DNA of 13,924 nucleotides from an uncultured archaeon (GTDB lineage: Archaea; Asgardarchaeota; Thorarchaeia; Thorarchaeales; Thorarchaeaceae), in NCBI GenBank assembly GCA_964648855.1, contig CAZYLT010000032.1:1-13924 (forward strand), written 5' to 3'. Every line of letters begins with the position of its first letter. The stretch's first letter is position 1. Positions 1 through 13,924 of the stretch are shown piece after piece. The notes below the pieces were generated by a model that did not search any database, was not told where the DNA came from, and saw only the letters and a program-made list of their open reading frames with translations. Position numbers and translations under genes: made by a program.

Positions 1-37
1 CTTTCAATCCTCACAATATGAGATTAGCTTCTGCAAG
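1..37 (-). CRISPR. Leader-proximal CRISPR repeat of left array (array continues beyond window start)
   Basis: Minus strand reads CTTGCAGAAGCTAATCTCATATTGTGAGGATTGAAAG: 37 nt, canonical ATTGAAAG 3' end, CTCA-N5-TGAG hairpin, 28/37 identical to the repeat at 13888-13924. Only one copy is visible. Confidence 0.85.
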
Positions 38-160: not shown

Positions 161-1768
161 TTACGTCAACGCTTCAAGCCACTCATGTGCTCTGTCTTCT
201 GGGTATGACCACCGCTGTGCGTGGTCGTCCCAAAGCTCATATGGAAATCCCCATCCGCCATAAATCCGGTTTGATAAGAGTCCCACCTGAGCCTCTGCTG
301 GCAGATCTACAATAGAAGCAGATACCCCGTAGCCGCCTCCTGACGGTAAGCGCAGTACCAGTATCAGTCGTCCATCCAATGTGTAGGATATGATAGCGCG
401 AGGAAACCTCTGTGACCAGCCTGCAATTGCCTCAGCTGTTTCTTGCTCGGAAGTAGTGACCAACACATCTTCGACTAAGCCGATATTATGTACTTCCCAT
501 TGGGCCTCTATGAGTCCTTCTTCTCTCAGCTTCTTGACGGATTCTGCCACTCTATGTTGTCCCACTTGGAGTGATTCGCGGATTTTGGTTATTGAGGTGG
601 TTCCTGACCGCACTAGATTCAGCACCTGCATATCAAGGCATTCTAGCCTGATACGAGTCTTGGCAGCCGGTTGTGTGATTTGGGGGAAAACTGAGCCCAA
701 TCGATCTCGATGTATTTTTGCTAGTTGAACCTGCAGAAAGCTCCAAGGAATATTCCATCTGCCATCATCAGGAGAATAGTAGTCAAAGGACTTGGTGACT
801 CCCGAAGTGACAATCTCCCACATATGTGACGTTAGGCCCCATTTGTCCATCATAAGGAGTCCATCCTTCATGATTCGAATACTTCTCGGATTACTAGGGA
901 CACAGATCGTTGCCATTGCATCCCACGCACCAGATTGCATCTTTCTGAATGAGTAGAGGAAGGGGCAGTTCTGAAGCAAGGAATAGGCATCTTGGAGGGG
1001 CTCATTGATTTGTATCAACATAGTGAACATGCGTATTCCAATCTTGGAAAAGGGAATTCTATCGAATTTCCTTAGAACTCCGCTATTCTGTAGTTCAGAA
1101 ACTTTTCGGGATGTCCATTGTTCTGATATTCCAACGGTTTCTGCTATCTGCTTCATTTTAGCATCTGGCATCCTCATCAGAGCATCAATGATTTTCAGTT
1201 CAGTCCGACCTAATGAAACTCTGAACTTGGGAAATCGAAGATGCATAAACGTGAGATAGTCTTCAAACTCTAGTGGGATTTCATATTTCTTCATAACCAA
1301 GAATTCTTCAATCAAGTCATTGAATCCTTTTGGCCCCATCAATTCGTACAAGCGAGCATATGTAGTGGAGGGGTTGTGAAAAAGCATAGAGCCAACTTGC
1401 GCTCGAGGATACAGTTCTTTCCAGAATGCTTCCCAGGTTTGTCTGCCTTCTTCAGGTAAGTTCTGACGAGCAAACTCCATGGCGAGATCCTCTATGCATT
1501 CACCGCATAGGTTAGCATTAGAGAATATTGTCGAAAAACAAGCGAAGGATGTTGCGCCTTGAAGTAGATTGTCATCCTTCAGAGATGTAGGTGAAACGAC
1601 TAGAGCATCATCTTGAATGACTGCAATAGGCTTACTCTTCCCATCTTTCCGTTCGAGAATACAGTTGGGCTTTGAGCTGGTTTTGACTCCCCATTCTGCC
1701 ATAATCTGTTTCTCACATGCATCCCATACTTTTAGGACAAGAGAAATCCGATTGTCGCTTTCATGCAA
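161..1768 (-). CDS. Putative transcriptional regulator: unknown N-terminal domain plus two tandem Lrp/AsnC-like wHTH + alpha/beta modules
   Basis: 535 aa, TTG start. wHTH1 is ELKIIDALMRMPDAKMKQIAETVGISEQWTSRKVSELQNSGVL...FSKIG. wHTH2 is LDMQVLNLVRSGTTSITKIRESLQVGQHRVAESVKKLREEGLI...NIG. Both halves end in similar motifs (FDYYSPDDGRWNIP / FPYELWDDHAQRWSYP). Confidence 0.7.
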   Translation of the reverse strand: MHESDNRISLVLKVWDACEKQIMAEWGVKTSSKPNCILERKDGKSKPIAVIQDDALVVSPTSLKDDNLLQGATSFACFSTIFSNANLCGECIEDLAMEFARQNLPEEGRQTWEAFWKELYPRAQVGSMLFHNPSTTYARLYELMGPKGFNDLIEEFLVMKKYEIPLEFEDYLTFMHLRFPKFRVSLGRTELKIIDALMRMPDAKMKQIAETVGISEQWTSRKVSELQNSGVLRKFDRIPFSKIGIRMFTMLIQINEPLQDAYSLLQNCPFLYSFRKMQSGAWDAMATICVPSNPRSIRIMKDGLLMMDKWGLTSHMWEIVTSGVTKSFDYYSPDDGRWNIPWSFLQVQLAKIHRDRLGSVFPQITQPAAKTRIRLECLDMQVLNLVRSGTTSITKIRESLQVGQHRVAESVKKLREEGLIEAQWEVHNIGLVEDVLVTTSEQETAEAIAGWSQRFPRAIISYTLDGRLILVLRLPSGGGYGVSASIVDLPAEAQVGLLSNRIYGGWGFPYELWDDHAQRWSYPEDRAHEWLEALT

Positions 1769-1772
1769 GGCT

Positions 1773-2423
1773 TCAATCGCCCCATAGCATCATTTTCCGT
1801 ACTCTCTTTAGCTGAAGTACAGTTTTCCCAAGGTCTGTTATCTCAACTCTCTTCTGTCTGTTGTGTAACTCTCTTGAGATATACCCGGCGCGTTCTAATT
1901 CTTTAAGATGTTTTGAAATAGAAGAGGCTCCTAATGAAGTTCGGGTGCCTAGTTTTGTTTGAGAATTCACAGCCCCACCCAAATCAATCAATTCAGCCAA
2001 GATATTCTTCTTGGGTTCTGTGAGCATAGAAACTGAGACAGGCTCGACTTGCACAATCTCGCCCATCACATTACCATCCTTCTCGGTCACGAAATAGACT
2101 GTTGAATCGGTAAATAGGGCAGCCATCTGTGCAGCTGAGGTCATCACCCGGGTCCCACAGGATATATTGAACTCAATCTCATATTCCGAATGTTCCAACA
2201 CTATCTCCAAGATGCCATTGAGGATTTTGTGATATCTCCAAGGATCCACACGCTTCGCAATAACAGGGATGCCGCCCCTCTTCATCCTACCCATTATTTC
2301 CTCCAGTTCGTCTGAATTCTTTTCGGTGTATACCAGTGCAACCTTGTCCCCACCACATTTCATCAACACATAGTCCACCCTCTCGTTTGCATGCAATCCC
2401 AGAGTTGCGATATGGAGCTTCAT
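1773..2423 (-). CDS. csa3: CARF (Rossmann-like) + wHTH CRISPR-associated transcriptional regulator, Csa3-like
   Basis: N-terminal HIATLG beta-strand motif, DKVALV strand and FNISCGTR (CARF SGGxR-like) motif; C-terminal wHTH SSISKHLKELERAGYI...VEITDLGK. Start placed at ATG 2423 (MKLHIATLG) rather than 2456; TATA-like TTTTAAT at 2455-2461 on minus. Confidence 0.8.
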   Translation of the reverse strand: MKLHIATLGLHANERVDYVLMKCGGDKVALVYTEKNSDELEEIMGRMKRGGIPVIAKRVDPWRYHKILNGILEIVLEHSEYEIEFNISCGTRVMTSAAQMAALFTDSTVYFVTEKDGNVMGEIVQVEPVSVSMLTEPKKNILAELIDLGGAVNSQTKLGTRTSLGASSISKHLKELERAGYISRELHNRQKRVEITDLGKTVLQLKRVRKMMLWGD

Positions 2424-2473
2424 TCTATGTCGAATATGGGAGAACACGAGGCGCATTAAAAGCTTCGAATTGA

Positions 2474-2488: not shown

Positions 2489-2669
2489 CTAGACTTCAAC
2501 TTATGTTGCGAGAGGACAATTTCGGCATTCTGTCTTCTCAGTGATTAGTTCCTACTTATTCTCGATCAATATGATCGAGTCAAGTTGGCCCCCTGAGGAC
2601 CCAGATTGGCCATGGAGTCCGTTCTAGAGAAGCCATGGCTTCAGACATGATGTCTGCAGTATAACTGAC

Positions 2670-2721
2670 GAACACAGCCAATAGCCAATCCAACACTCTA
2701 CTTGGCTGTGTTCCTTTTTTT
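2670..2721 (+). terminator. 12-bp stem-loop followed by T7 on plus strand; also directly downstream of the csa1 stop on minus
   Basis: GAACACAGCCAA (2670-2681) / TTGGCTGTGTTC (2702-2713), 20-nt loop, then C-TTTTTTT. Confidence 0.5.
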
Positions 2722-2722
2722 G

Positions 2723-3667
2723 TTAATGACACTCATCCCAGTACGGACAGTCTTCATAGCATTTCTCAGGAAGGCCTGGGTCCCGCGCATCGAATATCAA
2801 CTTCATAGCCATATCTCTTATCTCCAATAGTTCCTGCCTAAGTGGTTCCTCCAGGTTATGAACATCATAATCGATCGATGGGGGCAATTCCTTCCCAAAA
2901 TGGCAATACACGATACACCCCACATCTACAGGATATTCATGAATGCTCTCGATTACCATCCCGTAGCCAGTGGTCGCCAACCTATGAAACCGTCTTCTTC
3001 TTCCTGTTTTGATATCAAGAACAACGCCCTCTGAACCATATGCATCCGCACTTAGGTATCCGCTTAGTCCTAGATTCCTGCCATCGAGCTTTTGTTCCAC
3101 AACCACAGGGATTGCAGTACTGACCAATGCGTCCAGCCCGATGTAGGGCTGTGATGAGGAAATCCTATCAATGGACGCAACAATCTGATTCACTTGATAA
3201 TCCCACAGCCATTCCATATTGGATTTGACCTCCTCATGCCTAAAATGGCCGCCACGGCCATCAACTTCTATTTTTCGCCGATTCCTCAGGATGCTCTTTA
3301 TCACTGTGTCTCTAATTTGTGTCAAGAAGGTTCCAACTTCACTTCCCGATTTCAGCCCGTTGGAATACATAATCTTCTTGCCATGTTCGAATACTGAGGC
3401 CACGACCTTATGATACATGCTGCCTGCTACCATCTTTGCATTGGTTGGGCGTTTTTTCCCCTCAACATGATGCAGGTAGATGTCCCGCATGCTCTGACAA
3501 TAGCGGCTTGCAATTTCACTTAATGAGAGTGTAAAGTCATACGGGGGGTCGATGGGAGATACTTCCCAAGCCCACCCTCGAAACCGTTCATCAACAACAA
3601 TTTCTCTTGAGCGTTTCCGATATCTTCGAAGAAGTCTGCGCTTAATCTTCTCAGGCAGCAAATACAT
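2723..3667 (-). CDS. csa1: CRISPR-associated Cas4-like protein Csa1
   Basis: Csa1-type N-terminus VDERFRGWAW..PIDPP...LSEIASRYCQSMRDIYL; RecB-like LSAD...LDIKTG; C-terminal CYEDCPYWDEC Fe-S cysteines. Confidence 0.9.
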   Translation of the reverse strand: MYLLPEKIKRRLLRRYRKRSREIVVDERFRGWAWEVSPIDPPYDFTLSLSEIASRYCQSMRDIYLHHVEGKKRPTNAKMVAGSMYHKVVASVFEHGKKIMYSNGLKSGSEVGTFLTQIRDTVIKSILRNRRKIEVDGRGGHFRHEEVKSNMEWLWDYQVNQIVASIDRISSSQPYIGLDALVSTAIPVVVEQKLDGRNLGLSGYLSADAYGSEGVVLDIKTGRRRRFHRLATTGYGMVIESIHEYPVDVGCIVYCHFGKELPPSIDYDVHNLEEPLRQELLEIRDMAMKLIFDARDPGLPEKCYEDCPYWDECH

Positions 3668-3696
3668 CTATATCCCTCACTCCCCTATCTCATCAA

Positions 3697-4512
3697 TTAT
3701 CCATTATCTATTCCATCGATTTCCACTTTGACCTTGCCTAGCCCTGCGGTCCGATTCTTACCAACGTTGCTCATCTCAGCGAATCTTGCAAGGCATACAG
3801 TTAGTGGAATAAAGGGATCATCGGAACCCTCCACTGCATATTTTGCATTTCCAATGAACCCGATGACTGACCTGTTTCTCCCTAAAGAAACCTTTACTGT
3901 TCTAATTCTATGGGCGGTGACATACAAGTTCTGCTCAACCCATTGATAGTAGTCACTGATACGATCCACAGCCGTTGTACCCTTGATTGAATTCCAAACT
4001 CGCAGGAGTGCAGGAAATATCTTCTCGGGAGATGGAAGAAGGTATGCCTTATCACTCCCAAATTGGGAGAACTGAGTTGGCGTCATGAATTTCACTCCAA
4101 TCTCAATTCTTCCATTATGGTCTGAAACACCGGTGGTCCAGTCCTCTGCCAATTTGCTGGGATTGTGGTTTGCAAAGTCTATTCGCTTGACTGGAAAATA
4201 ATGGTGGTGGAGTCTAAGTTTGCTCTTGGGGTTCAGGGCGATACTTCTAACAGCATTCTCAAACCCGTCTGCATTGAATAGATTCACTCCAAAGTCGTAA
4301 ACCTCTCCCTCCTCAAAGTGTGTACGGAATCGTGAACCAAAGGGTAGTGGTTCCAGAGCGTAGGACCGTATTCGAGGTGAGTCATGAACCTTGCCGCTCA
4401 ACTCTTCATCGTGCTTCTGGAGCAGGCTGAGGAATGCTGCTCGAAGAGGAACGCCTGAAAACCCGATAGAGCCTGAGAAATTGCTTGCTATATGAAATTT
4501 CAATGATATCAC
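3697..4512 (-). CDS. cas6: CRISPR pre-crRNA endoribonuclease Cas6
   Basis: FMTPTQF, LPSPEKIF..LLRVWN, GFIG and C-terminal G-loop NVGKNRTAGLGKV. GTG start overlaps the cas3 TGA; AGGAGG SD at 4523-4528. Confidence 0.93.
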   Translation of the reverse strand: MISLKFHIASNFSGSIGFSGVPLRAAFLSLLQKHDEELSGKVHDSPRIRSYALEPLPFGSRFRTHFEEGEVYDFGVNLFNADGFENAVRSIALNPKSKLRLHHHYFPVKRIDFANHNPSKLAEDWTTGVSDHNGRIEIGVKFMTPTQFSQFGSDKAYLLPSPEKIFPALLRVWNSIKGTTAVDRISDYYQWVEQNLYVTAHRIRTVKVSLGRNRSVIGFIGNAKYAVEGSDDPFIPLTVCLARFAEMSNVGKNRTAGLGKVKVEIDGIDNG

Positions 4513-6587
4513 AATTTTTCATCCTCCTGTTCTCGAATCCTATGTAGATATGCTGCGACCAGTGCCCAATCGCCCACAACAAGGGCGCCGCTTCCACCAC
4601 TCAAATACAATCGTGGAATCCTGAAGTCATTTAGTTTATCAGGACGTCGCCATAGGAAGACAATATTTCTATCATGGAGAATCTGGTCAGCAATACCAGC
4701 CATTTTCTTATCTGGGAATCTTACCGTTACATGTTTCTGAAGATAGACACCTATGCGGTTCTCATACGGATTACCACGCCTTGCAGAAACACGAGGATAA
4801 CCGGTTCTCTCGATGTCGTCTAGAACGAAGATTGGCTCATCGTGTGAATGACGGCCCTTGATAGGACTAGGTATTGAATCCCAGTGTTTTTCTGCCTCTT
4901 CGATATGACCGGTTAGTCTGAACATCTCTAGTACATCAAGTTCCGTGTATACCGACCCACCTGTATCATTTGATGTGGAGGTGTTGAAACGGGCAAGCAC
5001 TGAATTCATTGTGCCCCTGAGAAATCCATTTTCTGCCATTGTTTCTACAGTTCGAGAATTCAGTTCGAATTCTATGTCATCCTCCGAGAGAGAGCCAATT
5101 ATGTTTCTGAGGTTGACATCGCCAGTGCTAGTATTGCAATTTGCATCCACTAATGTTACGAAGAAGTCTGCAGCATCTTTTAGGTCATAATCCTGTGTCC
5201 AAGAAAAAGGATCTCTACTAGCAGCAAGTGCCATGGCAAGCAAGAGGGGTCTGACTTCGGGACTGCATAGGAAGTCTGCGTAGGATGGAAGTTCCTTGAA
5301 TGCGTCTTGAGAATGGAGAATGAAATCGTCGAATGACAAAGTATCGACCGAAGCCATCCGAGTTGCCATAGGTAATGGAACATACATTGTGCACTCACAA
5401 GGACCATGTCTGCCGCCCCTTCCAAATCTCTGAAGAAATGAAGCTAAATCGTGTCCCTCCATAACGAGGTATGGTACATCGAAGTCAATACCAACTTCTA
5501 TCGCGGAGGTCCCAATCAGGATTGCTTTATTCATCTGTTCAATGTCTGGTCTCGCATTTCGTGGGATTAGTCCATGTATTTGATACAATGATTCCTGCTG
5601 ATTGATGCCCCGCGCCTCTAACTCCTCGGCAACAGCCCTTGCTACTCGGACAGCAAATATCACTGATGAAAAGACGCCCAAGACCTTCACTTTGCATTTC
5701 TCATAGGACTCATGGAGGGATTTCTCGAAGTAGTGAAGAATTTGACTGGCTGCGTCCTCAATATCATCATTGCTGGTCATGACCTGACTCTGTGTTTTGA
5801 GATGACAGAGAGTTTCATGACGGATTTGACGGTTATTCGGAGAACTGGTAGATATCGAAGGCACGGAGATGACATCAATCTCTGCATAGGTGTTCTCAAG
5901 CAACGAAAGGGTTTCACCATGTGTGGCACTTAGGTAGATGAGGTCAACGAGAGGCTGTTTGGGAGTACCTCTTAATTCGTTCAGCATAAAGAATACCCTA
6001 GCAAGGGTTGGTCCGGAATACAAATGAAACTCATCAATAACAAGAGTCTGGAATGTACCCAGTTGCTCAGTGATTCTACCATGACGGTGATACTTCCCCA
6101 CAAACGCGAGATAGATGGTATCCGGATTGGTCAGGAGAATTCTCATTCTGTCCCGTGAATGAGTTAGAATACGGTCTATAACACTCCCCTTCGCAGAATC
6201 ACCTGCCATTGCCTGAAGGCTTTCTCCGGTCAGATGGATTAGGTCGATGTCAGTATCCCCAGGATAGCTCGTCCAATCGACACCCTTTTCCCCAATGACC
6301 AATGGTTTCATTCCTAGTTTTTTCAGCAAATCCTGCATCGCTGAAACTTGATCCTTCACCAAGGTGTTTGTGGGATACACAAAGATGGCAGGAGTTTCAT
6401 GTCGTATGACACGTGCAAGAGAGGCAAGTGTTTTACCAGACCCTGTAGGTGCATCTAATACAATCACAGAAGACTCAGACTCTATTGTCTGAAGCTGATG
6501 CGTGTAGAGCCGATCCAGCTCTCCGAATGGCTCATCTGAATATGAGATGTATGCATCTTTCACCACTACATCAGCATCACTGTTCAA
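4509..6587 (-). CDS. cas3: Type I-D helicase Cas3' (no HD domain)
   Basis: SF2 motifs APTGSGKT, YPTNTLVKDQ, LTNPD, DEFH, LSAT, GTSAIEVGIDF, QRFGRGGR; no N-terminal HD nuclease. Confidence 0.93.
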   Translation of the reverse strand: MNSDADVVVKDAYISYSDEPFGELDRLYTHQLQTIESESSVIVLDAPTGSGKTLASLARVIRHETPAIFVYPTNTLVKDQVSAMQDLLKKLGMKPLVIGEKGVDWTSYPGDTDIDLIHLTGESLQAMAGDSAKGSVIDRILTHSRDRMRILLTNPDTIYLAFVGKYHRHGRITEQLGTFQTLVIDEFHLYSGPTLARVFFMLNELRGTPKQPLVDLIYLSATHGETLSLLENTYAEIDVISVPSISTSSPNNRQIRHETLCHLKTQSQVMTSNDDIEDAASQILHYFEKSLHESYEKCKVKVLGVFSSVIFAVRVARAVAEELEARGINQQESLYQIHGLIPRNARPDIEQMNKAILIGTSAIEVGIDFDVPYLVMEGHDLASFLQRFGRGGRHGPCECTMYVPLPMATRMASVDTLSFDDFILHSQDAFKELPSYADFLCSPEVRPLLLAMALAASRDPFSWTQDYDLKDAADFFVTLVDANCNTSTGDVNLRNIIGSLSEDDIEFELNSRTVETMAENGFLRGTMNSVLARFNTSTSNDTGGSVYTELDVLEMFRLTGHIEEAEKHWDSIPSPIKGRHSHDEPIFVLDDIERTGYPRVSARRGNPYENRIGVYLQKHVTVRFPDKKMAGIADQILHDRNIVFLWRRPDKLNDFRIPRLYLSGGSGALVVGDWALVAAYLHRIREQEDEKL

Positions 6588-6590
6588 CTA

Positions 6591-7385
6591 TCAATTCCCC
6601 TCAATTTCTGGAAAGGATGAAGCAAAGCGAGATCTCTCAGGAATTGGGCATACGTGCTTGTATCCGTAATCATCCGTCGCTATGATGTGTTCTCCTTCAA
6701 GTTCCGCATTAACAAGGATTGGAGATGGGGGGACTGTCAAGAGACTGCCTTGATGGATATGGGTATTTTCAGGAAGGTCATTCACATTAACTGGACAAGT
6801 TGGATGAAACCTTCCGTCGCCAATTTCCCCGTTCATCTCACAGGTTTCCAATCGTACTGATGTGTATTTCTTTCCCAGTCGGATGACAGAGGGAGGTTCA
6901 TCACCGATTACATAGAAATAGTAACTACATAACGGCGGGTGCTTGTAGTAGTGCCCCTTCTTTGGGACGTTGATGTTGTCTCTTTTCATGACATCCAATA
7001 GGGAGGATCCAATGCTATTCCATGTAATCTTGACAAGGCCCTCCTCTCTCCAGTCTTCCAGTTTCCTAGAGCCCACCATCCTCTGCCCGCTCAGCCATGA
7101 TCCTGCTTTGGTTTCTGCAGTCCGAGCTATGTCATAAGGGAAGTCAGAATTTCGCGCCGCTGGAGTGGCGTAGGTTCGCATAAGCGGCATATCCTCCTCA
7201 TAATGGGGTTGTGTCCCAGATATAACCCTTCGAACCGGAGAAACGTCGCGATTGATTGCATACATCAGTGCATAGTTATTCAGCAGGTTCGCTGGTTTCG
7301 CAGATGCACCATAGTCTTGGCTGGCAAAGAACAGATAGTCATGACTCGTCATAATGACCAAGTAGATATTCGGAAACGAAGCCAT
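6591..7385 (-). CDS. cas5: Type I-D Cas5 (Csc1)
   Basis: DYLFFAS..G, LNNYALMYA, YATPA and IRLGKK motifs of Csc1; located between cas7 and cas3'. Confidence 0.88.
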   Translation of the reverse strand: MASFPNIYLVIMTSHDYLFFASQDYGASAKPANLLNNYALMYAINRDVSPVRRVISGTQPHYEEDMPLMRTYATPAARNSDFPYDIARTAETKAGSWLSGQRMVGSRKLEDWREEGLVKITWNSIGSSLLDVMKRDNINVPKKGHYYKHPPLCSYYFYVIGDEPPSVIRLGKKYTSVRLETCEMNGEIGDGRFHPTCPVNVNDLPENTHIHQGSLLTVPPSPILVNAELEGEHIIATDDYGYKHVCPIPERSRFASSFPEIEGN

Positions 7386-7400
7386 GCTAGTATCATGCTC

Positions 7401-8321
7401 CTATTTCTTCTCAGACGCTGTTTTCACGAATTCATCCACATCTTTCTGCATGTCTTCAACTAATGACTTGTCTAATTTGGTGTCTCGCACTTCTTCAATC
7501 AATGCCTTGGTTTCCTCTGGGGAAAACAGGACAAGATTACCGCGCGATGCCGACATGTCTGCATACTTTGATAGAATGTCATGAGTTGCTTCATTAAGAT
7601 CTTCGCCCCACCTTGATGCAAGCTCCAGACTGTACTCCAGGGATGTGATTATTTCATCATATCCGCCCACTATGCCCAGTATCGAGTTACGAACATCACC
7701 CTTAACCCTCGTTTCAGCGCCATAAGCCTTCGAAGCGAGAAGTGTCTTCATGTATACTAAAAGCTCCTTCCACGTTACTGATGTCAAACTGATGACTGAA
7801 GGAAAGTTTGCTAATGGAGTCACATTATGAGTAAGGTTCAATGCCTGACCGGTTTTTTGATTCGCCTCATCAATGGCATTGAATGTGATTGTTTCTAGTA
7901 GGTCTTCAAACGGTTCAATTGAGAAGGCAGTAGAATACTCCACTCTGTGTTTGATGTTATAGGATGAACCTCCTCCAACTGATACCGCACCAAAGAGCGC
8001 ACATCTTGGACACTTCATGCACAAGTTATCCTTCAGAGAGCATTCATAGTCCTTAACGGTCCTAAGTAACCGCGAGAACATTCTGTTCTCCACAGCCTTC
8101 TGCTTGGAGGCCAAAAATGCAACCTTCACAGTTGGCTTAGCGGATTCGATTGATTCAGGGATAACAACGGTGTTTAATTCCCTGCTCTCCTCCGTTCTGA
8201 GCACCGTGTAGTCGTGTGTCTGTCTAACTGCCATCACCTGAACTACGCGTGCATCAAGTAGAGGAGATATCTTATCAACAAGATATTCGTCCAGTTTTGC
8301 TAATGATTTCGGTTGTGTCAT
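7401..8321 (-). CDS. cas7: Type I-D Cas7 backbone (Csc2)
   Basis: KQKAVENR, C..CPRCALFG zinc site, KHRVEYSTAFS, TFNAIDE, FPSVISL and YGAETRVKG motifs of Csc2. Confidence 0.92.
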   Translation of the reverse strand: MTQPKSLAKLDEYLVDKISPLLDARVVQVMAVRQTHDYTVLRTEESRELNTVVIPESIESAKPTVKVAFLASKQKAVENRMFSRLLRTVKDYECSLKDNLCMKCPRCALFGAVSVGGGSSYNIKHRVEYSTAFSIEPFEDLLETITFNAIDEANQKTGQALNLTHNVTPLANFPSVISLTSVTWKELLVYMKTLLASKAYGAETRVKGDVRNSILGIVGGYDEIITSLEYSLELASRWGEDLNEATHDILSKYADMSASRGNLVLFSPEETKALIEEVRDTKLDKSLVEDMQKDVDEFVKTASEKK

Positions 8322-8323
8322 AT

Positions 8324-8944
8324 CTATTTCTCTCCCTTCTTCTGTTTGTAATCATCCCAAAACTCCTTCACTACCTCCTGTAACTCGGAGGGTGTAGAGA
8401 ATGGGTCTTCAATATCATCAAAAGATTCGTACTCTGGGGCTTCGATGAGATACTCGTTGATTGAGCCAATCGATGAGTATTTTTCCTGCAACCATTCATG
8501 GAATTTCCTCTGTATCCCCTTTCTCTGCCCCACCAGCTTGCCCTTGTATACACCAAAGAAGATCTCGTCGTCCAAATCTTCAACAGTCTTCAACCATTTT
8601 GTTGGAGGAAGAAGTGCACGAAGGTCGGCTAATTTGGCAGCAGCTTCATCTAAACGCTCTGCAGCATCTGCCGAAACACCTCTCGGGCTCTGCTGGTTCC
8701 TATGAATACTCAGCACGTAGCCCTTCACTGCACCCCAATTTATGTCTCCAGTAGTTGTTATCTTTGTCAAGAACTTGCCTACTGGCCCCATAAGTGCATG
8801 CTTGGAATCTGACATCGTCCCTGGGGGATGATATGTTTCCAAATACTTGATGAGAGCTTCAACTGATTCTTCTCGTGTTTGCCTGATTTTTTCAGTATCG
8901 GTTTCTTCTTGTTCTCGTTCCATTCGGATTACCAATTTTATCAC
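8324..8944 (-). CDS. cas11: Separately encoded Cascade small subunit, Cas11d-like, with a C-terminal extension
   Basis: Helical protein between cas10d and cas7. YLETY...SKHALMGPVGKFL resembles, from recall, the Y..FY...S.HA...P..K.L segment of Cas11d / the Cas10d C-terminus. AGGTGA SD at 8941-8946 suggests a true start at TTG 8935 or ATG 8923. Confidence 0.72.
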   Translation of the reverse strand: MIKLVIRMEREQEETDTEKIRQTREESVEALIKYLETYHPPGTMSDSKHALMGPVGKFLTKITTTGDINWGAVKGYVLSIHRNQQSPRGVSADAAERLDEAAAKLADLRALLPPTKWLKTVEDLDDEIFFGVYKGKLVGQRKGIQRKFHEWLQEKYSSIGSINEYLIEAPEYESFDDIEDPFSTPSELQEVVKEFWDDYKQKKGEK

Positions 8945-11596
8945 CTAGATTAATTTTGATTCTGTAGTTGTACCAACAAATGCTGGTAATTGTTCAAGTA
9001 ACTTGATTAGTTGCGCTTTTTTCCATCTCGGGAGTTGCCCACGATTCTCCATCTCAGCTCGTCGCAGAATGGCGCCACGATTCATCGATGATAAACGCAG
9101 CAAACGATCTTTGCCCAGTTTTTCTACAAAACTCATTGACACCAAGGTCAAGGAGGCCATTTTCTGCAACACTGCCTGTATCTGATGAAGTTGTACATCG
9201 GATGATATGCCCAGATTAGAGAGAGCAATATCTGCTGTTGCGGTCATGGGTACGCGTACCAACCCACGGGTTGTCAAGTCTGTTAAGGGTTCAAATCCTT
9301 CAATGTATATGACTCTAGCAAGAAACAAGTCAGCCATTAGTAATGACAGGAGGTATGTTCGAAGAGCAGTTGTGCTATCAGCCTCATTCTCGTCCCCATA
9401 GAGCTTGTTTCTGAAGAAAATGAACATATGACTTGGTGTTAGGTAAGAAGTATATTGCATCTTAGAGGGCGGGCTGTAATTCTGCAAATGTCGAGCATCT
9501 ATCACGATTGAGCCGCTCAAATGCGCCTTTGCCAGAGACTCGAATGTCTTCTCGTCCGGTTCGTCGCTTACCACTTCATATTTGATTTTGCTTGGATCAC
9601 TACGTTCCTGCTCAAGATGCTCGCTCAGTTTGTTTACACTAGTGGTAGTAGGCCGCATCATTTTGAACAGCTGTTCGGTGTTATCGATGGATTCCCCTGT
9701 AGCTAAGGCGTCATACACACGAGGCATATTCCAGACCTTTCCCGTACTCAGACCCAGTTTCTCAATGCGAGCAAAATCGTCCACCATTCGCGACCAATTT
9801 CGAAATACGGCTGGTGATAGTGATAGGTCTGGGAGCAGCACTAAGGTTGCATTTGGAGAAGACTCGAAGAAAAAGGCACGTAGGGTAGCCTCAGTACTAC
9901 AGACAGTACAGACTTGTGCTTTTCGTCCAGCTCCGATTTTTGTTCCTCCAGGAATGAAATTGGAAAACATCTGCGAGCCATCTCCAAAAAGTGCAGCTGC
10001 AGCATCGTCTTCACTGATAGAGCCGCAGAGGCTACAAATTCTCTTTCTCTGGTTTTTTCCTTCGAGGTATCGACTATATGTTTCCTTGGAGATATCTCGC
10101 ACTTCATCCCCCACCGTAAGGTCGATCGGCGAGTAATGAACGTCGGTTAGAAGAGATTTCTTCGCCGATTCCGTCAGAATTTGCGGCGCGTATTTTTTGT
10201 ACTTGGATATTACGTCCTTCAAAAGCTGGATGAGGCTCTCCACTAGAAGACTTCGCCTTTCTTTATTCTCATGAAGGCGTTCGCTATCCATTTTCCATAG
10301 GCTTGCTATTGTTTCTACTCTATCATCCGCTGATGTAGTATGTGTCACCCCGCTTAGGCTATCGAACGTGAAATCTCCGAGATATTGATTCAGCCATTTG
10401 TTTACATCTTCAAGAAATTCCTTCCCGATGTCTGCAGACTCCGCAATCTCTTCATACTGCTTCAGAAAATCAACAGCGAAAACAAGCAGGTTGAAATCAG
10501 AGATCATCAAAGCAACAATCTCTTCCGGATTGGATTTTGATTTCTCAACGAATTCATCAAGCGCAGCTTTGAATTTTGCCTTTTTCGACGAGCGTTTCAG
10601 ATAACTTTTCCCGTAATTCGCAGGTTTGTTCATCGCGGGCATAGAAGAAAGAAAATGGATTAGCTTGGGAATGTCCTTTTCTCGCACTACCTCTACACAG
10701 GGCCACTTCGTCTGTGTGAGAGGCCCTAGTACCGCATTTGTCATGCCTACTTGGTAGGCATCCGATTCTTGGAAGCTCTTGAACTGTTCATCAATCAAAT
10801 CCATCAGTCGCTCTCGTGGGTTGGGGTCCCCCCCCTCCTCCCCAATGAGAATATATGCTACTCCATTTCCAAAATGCAGTAATGGTTCATACCCAATCTC
10901 CTTCATCAGCTCGATAAGAGCTTGATTAAGAAAGCTTGAAACCAATCCCCGAATAGATGACAGTTCGTGATACTGGAAGGATATTGATTTCCCAGGTGGA
11001 AGGTCTGGGTCCCATGACTTCTTTGCAATGTCGCTTGACGATTTCATACTCGCAATACTATCGCACAATCTGATGACAGGAGATAATTCATCGATAGGAC
11101 CAACTTGGCGACGACGCCTAGACGCCTCAGCTCTATTCTTTGCGTCGTGCGTGTAGACAACTATGTTCAGTACTCTATCGATCAATTCAGAGAGATTGAT
11201 ATTTTTTCCCTGACCAGCTAGTCTTGCCTCTACTCCTGCTAGAATGTCAAGCAAGTCCTGCCGGCTGTCTGCTGTTCCATCATCATGTGAGAAATCGTCG
11301 TTCTCATCTCTCCGCTTATCCATGAAGTTCAAGGCAGCCCGTTGCCACTTATCATGAGCCTTTTGATAGTCATGAAGAAAACCAGCCAAGCTCGCAATAT
11401 TGCAATCATCTTCATCCAGGTCGAAGACATTTTTCCCTATAATGCGAGCAATTGAAGCTACATTGAGAGAGTGGACTAGCAAACTTTGCTTGCCTCCTTG
11501 TCCAAACTTAGCATATTTGTGCTGCCAATCTCGATTCATTGCCTCTTGGAGAAGGGCTTGTTCGAGTTGTTCGGGTTCTATATTAAGGCGGGTCAT
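8945..11596 (-). CDS. cas10d: Type I-D large subunit Cas10d (Csc3) with N-terminal HD nuclease
   Basis: SLLVHSLNV...FLHDYQK...YTHD...CDSIAS HD motifs; YEPLLHFGNGVAY; CSLCG...FSN...CTVC zinc finger; no GGDD. ATG at 11596 is preceded by a GAGTGA SD (ORF track starts at GTG 11605). Confidence 0.92.
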   Translation of the reverse strand: MTRLNIEPEQLEQALLQEAMNRDWQHKYAKFGQGGKQSLLVHSLNVASIARIIGKNVFDLDEDDCNIASLAGFLHDYQKAHDKWQRAALNFMDKRRDENDDFSHDDGTADSRQDLLDILAGVEARLAGQGKNINLSELIDRVLNIVVYTHDAKNRAEASRRRRQVGPIDELSPVIRLCDSIASMKSSSDIAKKSWDPDLPPGKSISFQYHELSSIRGLVSSFLNQALIELMKEIGYEPLLHFGNGVAYILIGEEGGDPNPRERLMDLIDEQFKSFQESDAYQVGMTNAVLGPLTQTKWPCVEVVREKDIPKLIHFLSSMPAMNKPANYGKSYLKRSSKKAKFKAALDEFVEKSKSNPEEIVALMISDFNLLVFAVDFLKQYEEIAESADIGKEFLEDVNKWLNQYLGDFTFDSLSGVTHTTSADDRVETIASLWKMDSERLHENKERRSLLVESLIQLLKDVISKYKKYAPQILTESAKKSLLTDVHYSPIDLTVGDEVRDISKETYSRYLEGKNQRKRICSLCGSISEDDAAAALFGDGSQMFSNFIPGGTKIGAGRKAQVCTVCSTEATLRAFFFESSPNATLVLLPDLSLSPAVFRNWSRMVDDFARIEKLGLSTGKVWNMPRVYDALATGESIDNTEQLFKMMRPTTTSVNKLSEHLEQERSDPSKIKYEVVSDEPDEKTFESLAKAHLSGSIVIDARHLQNYSPPSKMQYTSYLTPSHMFIFFRNKLYGDENEADSTTALRTYLLSLLMADLFLARVIYIEGFEPLTDLTTRGLVRVPMTATADIALSNLGISSDVQLHQIQAVLQKMASLTLVSMSFVEKLGKDRLLRLSSMNRGAILRRAEMENRGQLPRWKKAQLIKLLEQLPAFVGTTTESKLI

Positions 11597-11644
11597 TGTA
11601 ATCACTCATTCAAGTGGCAACTTGGTTTCACTGTGTCTAATATC

Positions 11645-11738
11645 CTTAGCGCGGTATTTAAGGGACAGGGCCAATCCGTAGACATACAACAATTTGCGCT
11701 AAGACTGCATTCTAAGCCACATTGTCAAATAAGGGACA
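11645..11738 (-). promoter_or_regulatory. Putative promoter/operator region of the cas10d effector operon
   Basis: TATA-like TTAAATA (11655-11661, minus) flanked by inverted repeat CTTAGCGC/GCGCTAAG (11645-11652/11696-11703). Motif at 11716-11738 is shared with the cas1 upstream region. Confidence 0.5.
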
Positions 11739-11794
11739 TCTAATGAGAGTAATGAAATTAAACTAATGTCGGAAAGTAGTTATATTCAAGTACC

Positions 11795-12433
11795 TCAGAA
11801 GTCCCTACAGAAATCTGCAAATCCACACCCTACGCGGCCTTTTGAGCACTCAGGGCGAGGACGAGGAACAGTACCTTGTTGAAAAATCTTCTTGATTTGG
11901 TTGATATAGTACATTGTTCTGCGCTTGACGCCCTCTGTAAAACTAACTTGAATCGAAGTCGGTTCAAGCATATAATGAACCACACCACGTCTAACAATAA
12001 TATCCTCTGTTTCCTCAATCAAAAGAGCAAGTGTGCTAAGCTGATATTTATGATCCATTCGTACTCCACCTCGGTTGCTCTTCATGACCTTGAATTCTAC
12101 AGGAATCAGCTCCGAGTCAGTGGTTTCAATCAGCATATCGAGGCGTCCGTGGACTCCTAATCGGTTAGATTGAAGTGGAATGTCAAATTCCTTTGTTCTA
12201 AAATCAAAGGGTAGGTCCGATTTCATTATGGACTTCCTCCTTTTCTCTAGGTCCGAAAGCAGCTCGTGTGACTTCTTTGCATCTTCCTGCTGCGATCCCA
12301 TTATGGGCTTCAATCGCACAACCCTTGTGAAATAGGTGACTCTCGGACAAAACACAAATTGTTTGACATCTGTAGGAGTCACTATTCTTTTGCCTGGTTC
12401 ATTTCGTTCAGAATACCGATACTTGTGTTTCAT
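11795..12433 (-). CDS. cas4: CRISPR-associated exonuclease Cas4
   Basis: VTPTDVKQFVFCPR, GRLDML, IPVEFK, YQL and C-terminal Cys cluster. ATG 12433 chosen on AGGAG SD at 12444-12448; overlaps the cas2 end. Confidence 0.92.
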   Translation of the reverse strand: MKHKYRYSERNEPGKRIVTPTDVKQFVFCPRVTYFTRVVRLKPIMGSQQEDAKKSHELLSDLEKRRKSIMKSDLPFDFRTKEFDIPLQSNRLGVHGRLDMLIETTDSELIPVEFKVMKSNRGGVRMDHKYQLSTLALLIEETEDIIVRRGVVHYMLEPTSIQVSFTEGVKRRTMYYINQIKKIFQQGTVPRPRPECSKGRVGCGFADFCRDF

Positions 12434-12698
12434 CGCGTTCCATCTCCTTTTGAGCACCTATCAAAACACGGTTCGAAAAGCAGGAATTGCATAATGGAAA
12501 AATTATGACTGAGTCAGTTTCTTCCCCGTCGTTTAGCAGTTTTCTCATGTCTGTATGAAGGGAACGCAAGGCGTATCGAGAGAGAGGTCCCTCGAACGTG
12601 CTGTATTGAATCCGTTCTAAACCATAGTCTTTCATTCGACTGCTTATTTTATTTCTGAGAGCGTCGCTTGAGATGTCATAAACGGCAATATAGTGCAT
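12408..12698 (-). CDS. cas2: CRISPR-associated endonuclease Cas2
   Basis: 96 aa; IAVYDISSD..R, YGLERIQYSTFEG, DSVIIFPLCNSC. Confidence 0.96.
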   Translation of the reverse strand: MHYIAVYDISSDALRNKISSRMKDYGLERIQYSTFEGPLSRYALRSLHTDMRKLLNDGEETDSVIIFPLCNSCFSNRVLIGAQKEMERDETQVSVF

Positions 12699-12701
12699 GC
12701 G

Positions 12702-13724
12702 TCACCACCTCAATGTGAAAGGCTCATATTTGGTAGATTCTCCACGCAAGAATCGGGAAACAGCCCAAGCCTGTCTGACAATCACGTTCTTAATCTGAAT
12801 TGACTTCCCTTCATAATTCACTCGCTCTTCCAGTCTACTGATAATGTCTGATGCGAGCATATTGCGGCATTTCTCCGATAACTCATCATCAGAGAGAACA
12901 TCATCGAAGGCCAATTTGCCTTTTGTCACCATGGCCATAATAGTCCGATCAACCACCTGCTGTCTGAATTCCTCTATCAAGTCAAGAACCATGGAGGGCC
13001 GCCCGGGTCTGTCAACATGCAAAAAGCCTGCAAAAGGGTCAAGCCCAGCTTTGCTAACAGCAGTCCAGACTTCAGAATAGAGAATTCCATATCCGTAATT
13101 GAGAAGCATGTTAAAGGGGTCGCTTGCCCCACGAGTTTCTCTCCCAAGGAAGTTGAATTCTGGAGGGATAACCAGTGAAGCCCCATTCCAGTATTGTGAT
13201 GCTGCGCGGCCTTCGATATTCATTAGAGAGTTTCTTTTCTTTGAGGACATATTCCCTCCAATCTCGTTCATTTCCTCAGAGATAACATCGATCTCAGTTA
13301 CCAAATCAAATAACTTGTCTGAGGTGGCTGGCTGTGTTCTAGTTCGATTCTTTGCCCAAGTATACAATAAGTTTCTCTGGTTTTTTAATTTCCCTTTGAT
13401 GAATGCAGAAGAAAGATGAGTTGCCGCAGTGGTTTCTGCATTCATGTACTGATTTCGTCGAGTCAGTACTGTTCCATGCCCGCTCGTGGGAGTGAGGAAA
13501 GCAAACGGCCTGCCCGATGAATATGTAAAAGCAACCGGGACCCTGTTATCTACTGCAAGATACACGGCTGCAGAACTCAATGATGCTCCAGAGGACGAGA
13601 TCAGTATTCTCTCAACGTCAGATGCAGGGAATTCTGCAACCTTTTTTCCCTTCTTTTTTACTACGAATCTTTCTCCAGTTTTGCCAAGGAATAGTCCAAA
13701 ATCCTCTAGGATGATTGTATGCAT
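12702..13724 (-). CDS. cas1: CRISPR-associated integrase Cas1
   Basis: LMNIEGRAASQYW, DPFNMLLNYGYGIL, GLDPFAGFLH, MVLDLIEEFR with catalytic E/H/D(E) intact; GGGAGG SD upstream. Confidence 0.97.
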   Translation of the reverse strand: MHTIILEDFGLFLGKTGERFVVKKKGKKVAEFPASDVERILISSSGASLSSAAVYLAVDNRVPVAFTYSSGRPFAFLTPTSGHGTVLTRRNQYMNAETTAATHLSSAFIKGKLKNQRNLLYTWAKNRTRTQPATSDKLFDLVTEIDVISEEMNEIGGNMSSKKRNSLMNIEGRAASQYWNGASLVIPPEFNFLGRETRGASDPFNMLLNYGYGILYSEVWTAVSKAGLDPFAGFLHVDRPGRPSMVLDLIEEFRQQVVDRTIMAMVTKGKLAFDDVLSDDELSEKCRNMLASDIISRLEERVNYEGKSIQIKNVIVRQAWAVSRFLRGESTKYEPFTLRW

Positions 13725-13759: not shown

Positions 13760-13887
13760 TTGTCCCCTATTGACAATGTTGCGGTGATGTTTATAAATGG
13801 AGCTACAGAATTGACATCACCGCAATGAGGTGAGTGCTATCGACGTTATGAAGCGAGATAGCACAAAAAGAAGCAAAAAGGCGCCCT
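13760..13887 (+). promoter_or_regulatory. CRISPR leader of right array / divergent cas1 promoter region; TTTATAAA (13790-13797) within a perfect 12-bp inverted repeat
   Basis: TTGCGGTGATGT (13779-13790)-N23-ACATCACCGCAA (13814-13825); homologous to the left leader. Confidence 0.85.
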
Positions 13888-13924
13888 GTCACAGAAGCTA
13901 ATCCCAAAGAATGGGGATTGAAAG
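13888..13924 (+). CRISPR. Leader-proximal CRISPR repeat of right array (array continues beyond window end)
   Basis: GTCACAGAAGCTAATCCCAAAGAATGGGGATTGAAAG: 37 nt, GT start, ATTGAAAG end, CCCA-N5-TGGG hairpin. Confidence 0.88.

Follow-up and report, generated by a model that had tools for sequence, protein, structure and literature searches.

A candidate peptide-gated regulator, built from a pseudo-peptidase domain and two Lrp/AsnC modules, in a type I-D CRISPR locus of an Asgard archaeon

Introduction

A type I-D CRISPR-Cas locus of an Asgard archaeon of the Thorarchaeia harbors a three-gene module composed of a micro-peptide gene, a gene for a CARF-wHTH protein, and a gene for a 535-residue protein in which a domain of peptidase fold precedes two Lrp/AsnC modules, the latter protein being the putative receptor and regulator. 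Sequence comparisons and structural models establish the domain architecture of this protein, show that its zinc motif is lost and that the peptide ORF is coding, and document the co-occurrence of peptide and regulator, their co-variation at the level of clades, and a repeated association with cas genes of several subtypes. The large protein is a real Asgard DNA-binding protein, undescribed in the literature searched. The interpretation that we prefer, and to which we give about even chances, is that of a peptide-gated regulator, similar to Rgg/SHP in its mode of action without being related to it, the cleft of a dead peptidase being bound by the peptide and DNA binding being switched. If true, this would represent convergent evolution of RRNPP-like signaling from a pseudo-enzyme, and would mean that the lineage closest to eukaryotes employs a short linear motif, rich in Pro, as a signal. 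To our knowledge, CRISPR regulation in Asgard archaea is unstudied, and we know of no peptide-controlled transcription factor system in archaea. None was found in the literature searched, where the module is also undescribed, an earlier mention in the 2020 Asgard CRISPR survey (Makarova, CRISPR J) being possible. Annotation pipelines have overlooked a conserved gene that lies in many CRISPR loci of Asgard archaea, and the module to which it belongs is directly testable, as it comprises a peptide of 18 residues that can be synthesized, a soluble protein that folds well, and DNA targets that are defined.

Genomic context

The window (the whole stretch of DNA analyzed, 13,924 nucleotides) is the entire contig C32 of a 3.1-Mb genome that is 94.6% complete, and is flanked by a 27-repeat array on contig C33 and a 66-repeat array on contig C11. 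Every annotated gene is located on the minus strand: a type I-D cas set, csa1, the CARF-wHTH gene, and the gene for the 535-residue regulator. The features of the locus are as follows.

1-37, minus strand: first repeat of the left array, which continues on contig C33 (27 repeats)
100-144, no strand assigned: left leader inverted repeat, with 9-bp arms and a 27-nt spacer, bracketing a TATA-like box (127-133); the first repeat lies about 62 nt away
161-1768, minus strand: regulator, 535 residues, with a gluzincin domain predicted to be catalytically dead ahead of two Lrp/AsnC modules
164-652, minus strand: Lrp/AsnC module 2, residues 373-535
653-1219, minus strand: Lrp/AsnC module 1, residues 184-372, a wHTH, an alpha/beta domain and a Trp-rich tail
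1223-1768, minus strand: N-terminal domain, residues 1-182, predicted pseudo-peptidase (gluzincin, M1/M4-like) with HExxH replaced
1773-2456, minus strand: Csa3-like CARF3-wHTH regulator, with the CARF motif N-x-S-x-G-x-R retained
2457-2570, no strand assigned: divergent intergenic region between the CARF gene and the peptide gene, with a palindrome (2474-2488) and CAACTT at 2497, candidate autoregulatory operators
2571-2627, plus strand: unannotated gene for an 18-residue micro-peptide with the core WPPEDPDWPW
2609-2721, plus strand: structured 3' tail of the peptide transcript, with a hairpin over the last codons, a 12-bp hairpin (2670-2713) and a T7 tract (2715-2721)
2723-13724, minus strand: type I-D genes cas1, cas2, cas4, cas10d, cas11d (8324-8944), cas7/csc2, cas5/csc1, cas3', cas6 and csa1
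13780-13824, no strand assigned: right leader inverted repeat, with the same arms and spacing
13888-13924, plus strand: first repeat of the right array, which continues on contig C11 (66 repeats)

The first-pass annotation had placed an ORF at 161-1768, 4 nt from its neighbor, and both the ORF and the spacing are real: the regulator gene begins with TTG, after a gap (1769-1772) from the stop codon of the CARF-wHTH gene. In the public record the protein has 513 residues and is begun at Met23; the longer, 535-residue form is favored here because of a conserved W15, a modeled helix spanning residues 2-26, and the fact that the closest relative shares this non-ATG start.

The repeats that border the window (1-37 and 13888-13924) are differing 37-nt variants with differing internal hairpin arms, and share one Cas6 and one Cas1/2. 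In cyanobacterial type I-D systems Cas11d is an internal product of cas10d; in this locus, and likewise in related ones, it is encoded by a gene of its own after cas10d, at 8324-8944 (PADLOC, E 2e-21).

Architecture of the regulator

The AF2 model of the regulator, built from a 60-sequence alignment, has a pLDDT of 94.9 and a pTM of 0.90, and the entire confident model is accounted for by a gluzincin fold and two Lrp modules. Two wHTH matches are present, at residues 186-234 and 378-423. An internal duplication of a wHTH plus alpha/beta module had been proposed from the sequence and is borne out: residues 184-372 and 373-535 are homologous by hhalign (99.05%, E 2e-18), at 11% identity, a relationship that BLASTP leaves undetected. 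Foldseek identifies the arrangement as tandem Lrp/AsnC, placing the tandem-Lrp enzyme NirDL (4ch7) at the top (E 3e-8), followed by FFRPs, with E-values of 2e-5 to 1e-3 against PH0061, LrpA and LrpC; the order of wHTH and then RAM domain that is characteristic of Lrp/AsnC proteins occurs twice in the chain. Like NirDL/AhbAB (PDB 4ch7), the regulator thus carries two Lrp-type modules per chain; unlike NirDL, a siroheme decarboxylase with which it shares 11% identity, it has an additional N-terminal pseudo-peptidase, Trp-rich tails, and no heme-pathway context.

The N-terminal domain, previously regarded as being of no known type, adopts a gluzincin fold. Residues 1-185, folded alone, reach a pLDDT of 92.6, and in a wide VIA search all 50 matches listed were zincin-fold (zinc-metallopeptidase) proteins, nearly all of them gluzincins, with M1 aminopeptidases and thermolysin leading the list. 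The best match (178 residues aligned, rmsd 4.4) has a Z of 9.8, which is only moderately above the background quoted for the tool, the list nevertheless being uniform and the whole domain being covered. Foldseek returned the same peptidase families with E-values that are not significant, while language-model features pointed, as a lead, to peptidase MA clusters; no sequence relative of the domain was found in the PDB. The HExxH zinc motif is absent from the first 260 residues in 120/120 homologs, and at its position the family consensus is R-E-A-F-x, the window protein having F-A-C-F-S. Conserved residues of the domain are D94, W112, W116, Y/H131 and P133. The CGEC motif, which had been singled out as a feature of this region, is not conserved and is rejected as a metal site on that ground, C88 being present in 29/120 homologs and C91 in 20/120. 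From sequence and model, we infer a pseudo-peptidase that has a gluzincin fold and lacks catalysis, and that may still bind peptides.

Zincin-fold domains that work with HTH regulators beside an immune operon are also found in CapP/CapH (of CBASS), IrrE/DdrO and ImmA/ImmR, where the HExxH protease is active and the repressor is cleaved by it (bioRxiv 10.1101/2022.04.27.489752). The present protein resembles these pairs in its components and differs from them in the absence of HExxH from all 120 homologs, the fusion of the domain to tandem Lrp modules, and the presence of a micro-peptide gene.

The CARF-wHTH partner

The neighboring gene had been called csa3, an assignment that stands with respect to type and falls short with respect to family. 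The protein encoded at 1773-2456 is a Csa3-like CARF-wHTH protein with the (D/N)-x-(S/T)-x3-(R/K) motif, and its best PADLOC match is CARF3 (E 4e-37); however, it scores 49.3 bits against the Csa3 model TIGR01884, under the cut-off of 60.2. It is a member of a CRISPR-associated regulator group. As in Csa3/CasR of Sulfolobales (PMC8844856), it combines CARF and wHTH domains, carries a motif-2-like S-C-G-T-R, and adjoins csa1. It differs from these proteins in its sub-threshold score, in the replacement of the motif-1 Phe by Leu, in its pairing with a large regulator even where cas genes are absent, and in the lack of a detectable type III cOA synthase in the genome; neither a type III Cas10 nor a RAMP protein that might provide the CARF protein with cOA was found in this 94.6% complete assembly.

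The micro-peptide gene

The CARF-wHTH gene and the regulator gene had been proposed to form a two-regulator module. The pairing holds, since the two genes occur together, in both orders, at about 31 of the 63 loci of a neighborhood set with flanks of up to about 10 kb; the proposal missed a third part, an 18-codon peptide ORF at 2571-2627. This ORF lies upstream of the CARF gene and divergent from it, and its Pro/Asp-rich core ends in W-P-W.

By its pattern of sequence variation, the ORF is shown to be coding. It is present in 25/25 CARF-then-regulator pairs for which upstream sequence is available, and seven held-out family loci carry it as well. Variation in the invariant codons is purely synonymous: over 27 loci the penultimate Pro is written with all four codons (7/7/6/7), the final Trp is invariant, and the stops TAA, TAG and TGA are used 13, 8 and 6 times. 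Synonymous change amounts to 40% in the peptide frame as opposed to 7% and 13% in the other forward frames, and in 26/27 loci an ATG in frame is found 12-21 codons before the ORF ends. A profile of the peptide scores 34.9 at the window and 16.9 at the next-best place in the genome, the lowest leave-one-out score being 18.9. A loose DNA pattern for the peptide, run over 400 genomes, gave no more matches than its reversed control, and exact-pattern scans of IMG/VR yielded no viral copy of the regulator or of the peptide motif. No Rfam match was obtained, and a scan for bacterial promoters and terminators found nothing.

The peptide ORF tracks the large regulator and not the CARF gene, because it is found directly upstream of the regulator both where the gene order is reversed (L051, L053, L054, L058) and where an adjacent CARF gene is missing (L042, L087-L089, L091). 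In a quick IQ-TREE run four peptide subtypes map onto regulator clades, a correspondence that reflects shared ancestry and is not independent evidence. No peptide gene adjoins about 20 solo regulator paralogs, the one on contig C6 of this genome among them, so that either some copies do not need the peptide or it acts on them in trans. In family f15 (L125, L128) the WP..DPWP core of the peptide is preceded by a hydrophobic leader and an A-x-A site, and this signal-like leader favors the peptide itself as the product; the Thorarchaeia peptides, that of the window included, have no signal sequence.

The peptide transcript is usually convergent with the next gene and ends in hairpins and a T tract, which rules out a classical attenuator in the I-D loci. 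A different function is suggested by the proline-codon CreT of P. aeruginosa, which consists of a Shine-Dalgarno sequence (SD), a mini-ORF with consecutive Pro codons, and a stabilizing hairpin (bioRxiv 10.64898/2026.06.02.729485). The mini-ORF could be a ribosome-stalling toxin of this kind, silenced by both protein regulators and forming an addiction module that protects the locus. The window shares with CreTA an SD, a Pro-containing mini-ORF and a hairpin within a cas locus, with hairpins and the T tract after the ORF, and its peptide does contain Pro-Pro. The Pro-Pro pair is nonetheless not invariant, being absent in L038, L042, L045, L046, L050, L062 and L073, which retain the acidic and P-W residues; the ORF has 12-28 codons with a conserved amino-acid motif, and some orthologs carry a predicted signal peptide. 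A CreA guide was not found, the window containing no CreA-like degenerate repeat pair and the longest spacer match to 2457-2722 being 10 nt, and the association is with a protein regulator, not with Cascade. Such a toxin would also leave the dead peptidase domain unexplained, and we consider it improbable.

Leaders and candidate operators

The inverted repeat that had been reported in the leader is real. Across 12 related leaders the sequence of its arms varies while complementarity is kept, with 80.6% of positions paired as compared to 65.1% in shuffled controls and 20 two-sided changes; the signal is specific to the register and is lost on sliding. The TATA box between the arms is invariant, and in one leader (G015b) the complementarity of the arms is lost. 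The inverted repeat belongs mainly to this I-D leader family, and was not found at most homolog-linked arrays of other types.

These data bear on the possibility that the tandem-Lrp protein senses an amino acid or another metabolite and binds the leader repeat, either controlling array transcription or bending the leader for Cas1-Cas2. Its true Lrp/AsnC fold, the end of its gene 17 nt from the left inverted repeat, and the co-varying arms around an invariant TATA box are in keeping with such a role. Against it, the arm sequences vary while the HTH helices stay similar, leader G015b is devoid of complementarity, the repeat was not detected at most homolog-linked arrays of other types, and the peptide and the pseudo-peptidase are ignored. 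The regulator is only one candidate ligand among others, because inverted repeats of this kind are bound by Cas2 in type I-F leaders (bioRxiv 10.1101/2023.05.26.542337), and because histones are the archaeal adaptation host factor in Pyrococcus (PMC13748974). We therefore hold metabolite-dependent leader binding to be a doubtful explanation, of low probability.

A better candidate for autoregulation than the leader repeat is a clade-specific hexamer (CAACTT in the window, at 2497) in the divergent region between the peptide and CARF genes, which is present at 12/14 loci of the clade, the maximum in shuffled sequence being 9. This hexamer is not conserved upstream of cas10d, and no shared motif was found among cas10d promoters; no operator thus connects the regulator to the cas promoters. 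An AAGTTG-type hexamer was also considered as an operator of the Cascade promoter and rejected, the palindrome at about 11612-11625 being unconserved in nine other I-D loci, the closest included.

The TATA-like box of the right leader (13790-13797) has a self-complementary sequence (TTTATAAA) and could drive transcription in both directions, of the array and of the divergent cas1 operon.

Distribution and association with CRISPR-Cas

Regulator homologs, which belong to Asgard archaea (Thorarchaeia), are found in 30/36 family genomes, multiple copies being frequent. The profile of the N-terminal domain matches 41/59 family genomes and six other Asgard families; among those searched, the large families f5, f9 and f21 gave none. 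About 150 clusters (at 50% identity) are found at E below 1e-30, and similar shapes exist in Bathyarchaeia.

The first-pass annotation had described the protein as a candidate new CRISPR regulator, and the linkage to CRISPR loci is confirmed, although it is not exclusive. Cas genes or an array are located near the regulator at 26 of the 63 loci: ten show the same I-D order, four lie before a second I-D clade, two have I-A/B genes with cas1, six have type III genes, two a Csx1-like gene, and two csa1 only. In addition, 13 of the 28 cas1 matches of the family lie within 15 kb of a regulator homolog, a proportion far above chance because cas1 is present in only 19/86 genomes, with the reservation that related genomes are not independent. 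The regulator family is strongly cas-enriched across subtypes. It is nonetheless not a dedicated cas gene, since many copies occur without cas: in genus g5 the regulator family is present in 14/16 genomes, against 1/28 for cas1, and this genome has a solo paralog (C6:115713-117326, 32% identical) between an ABC permease and an amidohydrolase.

Copies of this kind raise the possibility that the module is a self-regulating peptide/regulator cassette that is carried in defense islands and integration hotspots and exerts no control over CRISPR-Cas. The 37/63 loci whose retrieved flanks contain neither cas genes nor an array (about 10 of these loci lie on short contigs), the occurrence of the module in genus g5 almost without cas1, the recurrence of copies at an ABC exporter/amidohydrolase site with or without cas, and the lack of a shared motif in cas10d promoters could all be accounted for in this manner. 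A mere passenger, however, would not be expected to recur with I-D (two clades), I-A/B and III systems in several regulator clades, to keep an identical gene order in 10 other I-D loci from several genera, or to be partnered by a CARF protein from a CRISPR-associated regulator group. We regard such a passenger cassette as unlikely, and a peptide-gated regulator remains the preferred reading.

The chromosomal site in question has an ABC exporter on one side and an amidohydrolase/aldehyde oxidoreductase cluster on the other. It houses regulator copies at L001 (the C6 paralog), L041, L045-L048, L056, L072 and L077, and in some genomes holds a whole I-D locus or an array, which suggests that the site is a hotspot of insertion where solo copies are left as remnants. 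A gene of 470-510 residues with no Pfam or PADLOC match is situated between the regulator and cas10d in the second I-D clade (L087, L088, L089, L091); the 490-residue neighbor found there is not a paralog. Homologs of about 710 residues (P0107, P0115, P0116, P0130; their Atlas cluster is mostly Bathyarchaeia) have an extra 200-residue N-terminal domain with no Pfam match, and are not CARF fusions, as the extension does not match the CARF profile.

Proposed mechanism and relation to peptide-sensing systems

In the peptide-gated mechanism, the Pro/acidic/Trp peptide would bind the substrate cleft that the dead gluzincin domain has kept, and the bound peptide would switch DNA binding by the two Lrp HTHs. 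The regulator and the CARF-wHTH protein may together close a feedback loop through their action on the divergent peptide/CARF promoter, and, where the module resides within a CRISPR locus, as it does here, it might conceivably also tune array or cas transcription. In family f15, where export is predicted, the peptide could be a population signal; in Thorarchaeia it could work inside the cell or as a leaderless signal. Weighing against this mechanism are the solo paralogs that have no peptide gene next to them, the many modules found away from CRISPR, the lack of signal sequences in Thorarchaeia peptides, the moderate Z of the peptidase match, the hexamer's lack of conservation before cas10d, and the failure to find a type III Cas10 or RAMP in this assembly as a source of cOA.

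RRNPP sensors employ a TPR-like helical domain. In the present case the candidate sensor is a dead gluzincin domain joined to two Lrp modules, and no TPR Pfam family appears among the matches listed for 60 family members. The module differs from RRNPP systems also in its archaeal host, its CARF-wHTH partner and its linkage to CRISPR. The resemblance to the Rgg/SHP and RopB/SIP cassettes of streptococci (RRNPP; PMC13361665) resides in a tiny peptide gene divergent from an HTH regulator, in peptide variants that track regulator groups, and in the existence of leaderless and exported forms, export here being deduced from a predicted leader.

A more ambitious version, in which archaeal quorum-like peptide signaling through a dead protease receptor would integrate a CARF nucleotide signal and switch Asgard CRISPR-Cas by way of the TATA-bracketing leader repeat, appears to us rather unlikely as a whole.

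Other CRISPR-related elements of the genome

Two further contigs of the same assembly carry related elements. Contig C51 (1065-5121, L157) contains a type IV CRISPR module with Csf1, Csf2, Csf3, Cas6 and a CysH-like gene. A spacer from the right-hand I-D array is identical to part of this module (39/39, C51:2623-2661), which is probably a mobile element targeted by the I-D system of the host. On contig C42 (5266-8774, L148) a second cas1 directly follows a trio of E2-like, ThiF/E1 and JAB genes, with a PIN gene nearby, the trio being a ubiquitin-like conjugation module that adjoins a solo cas1.
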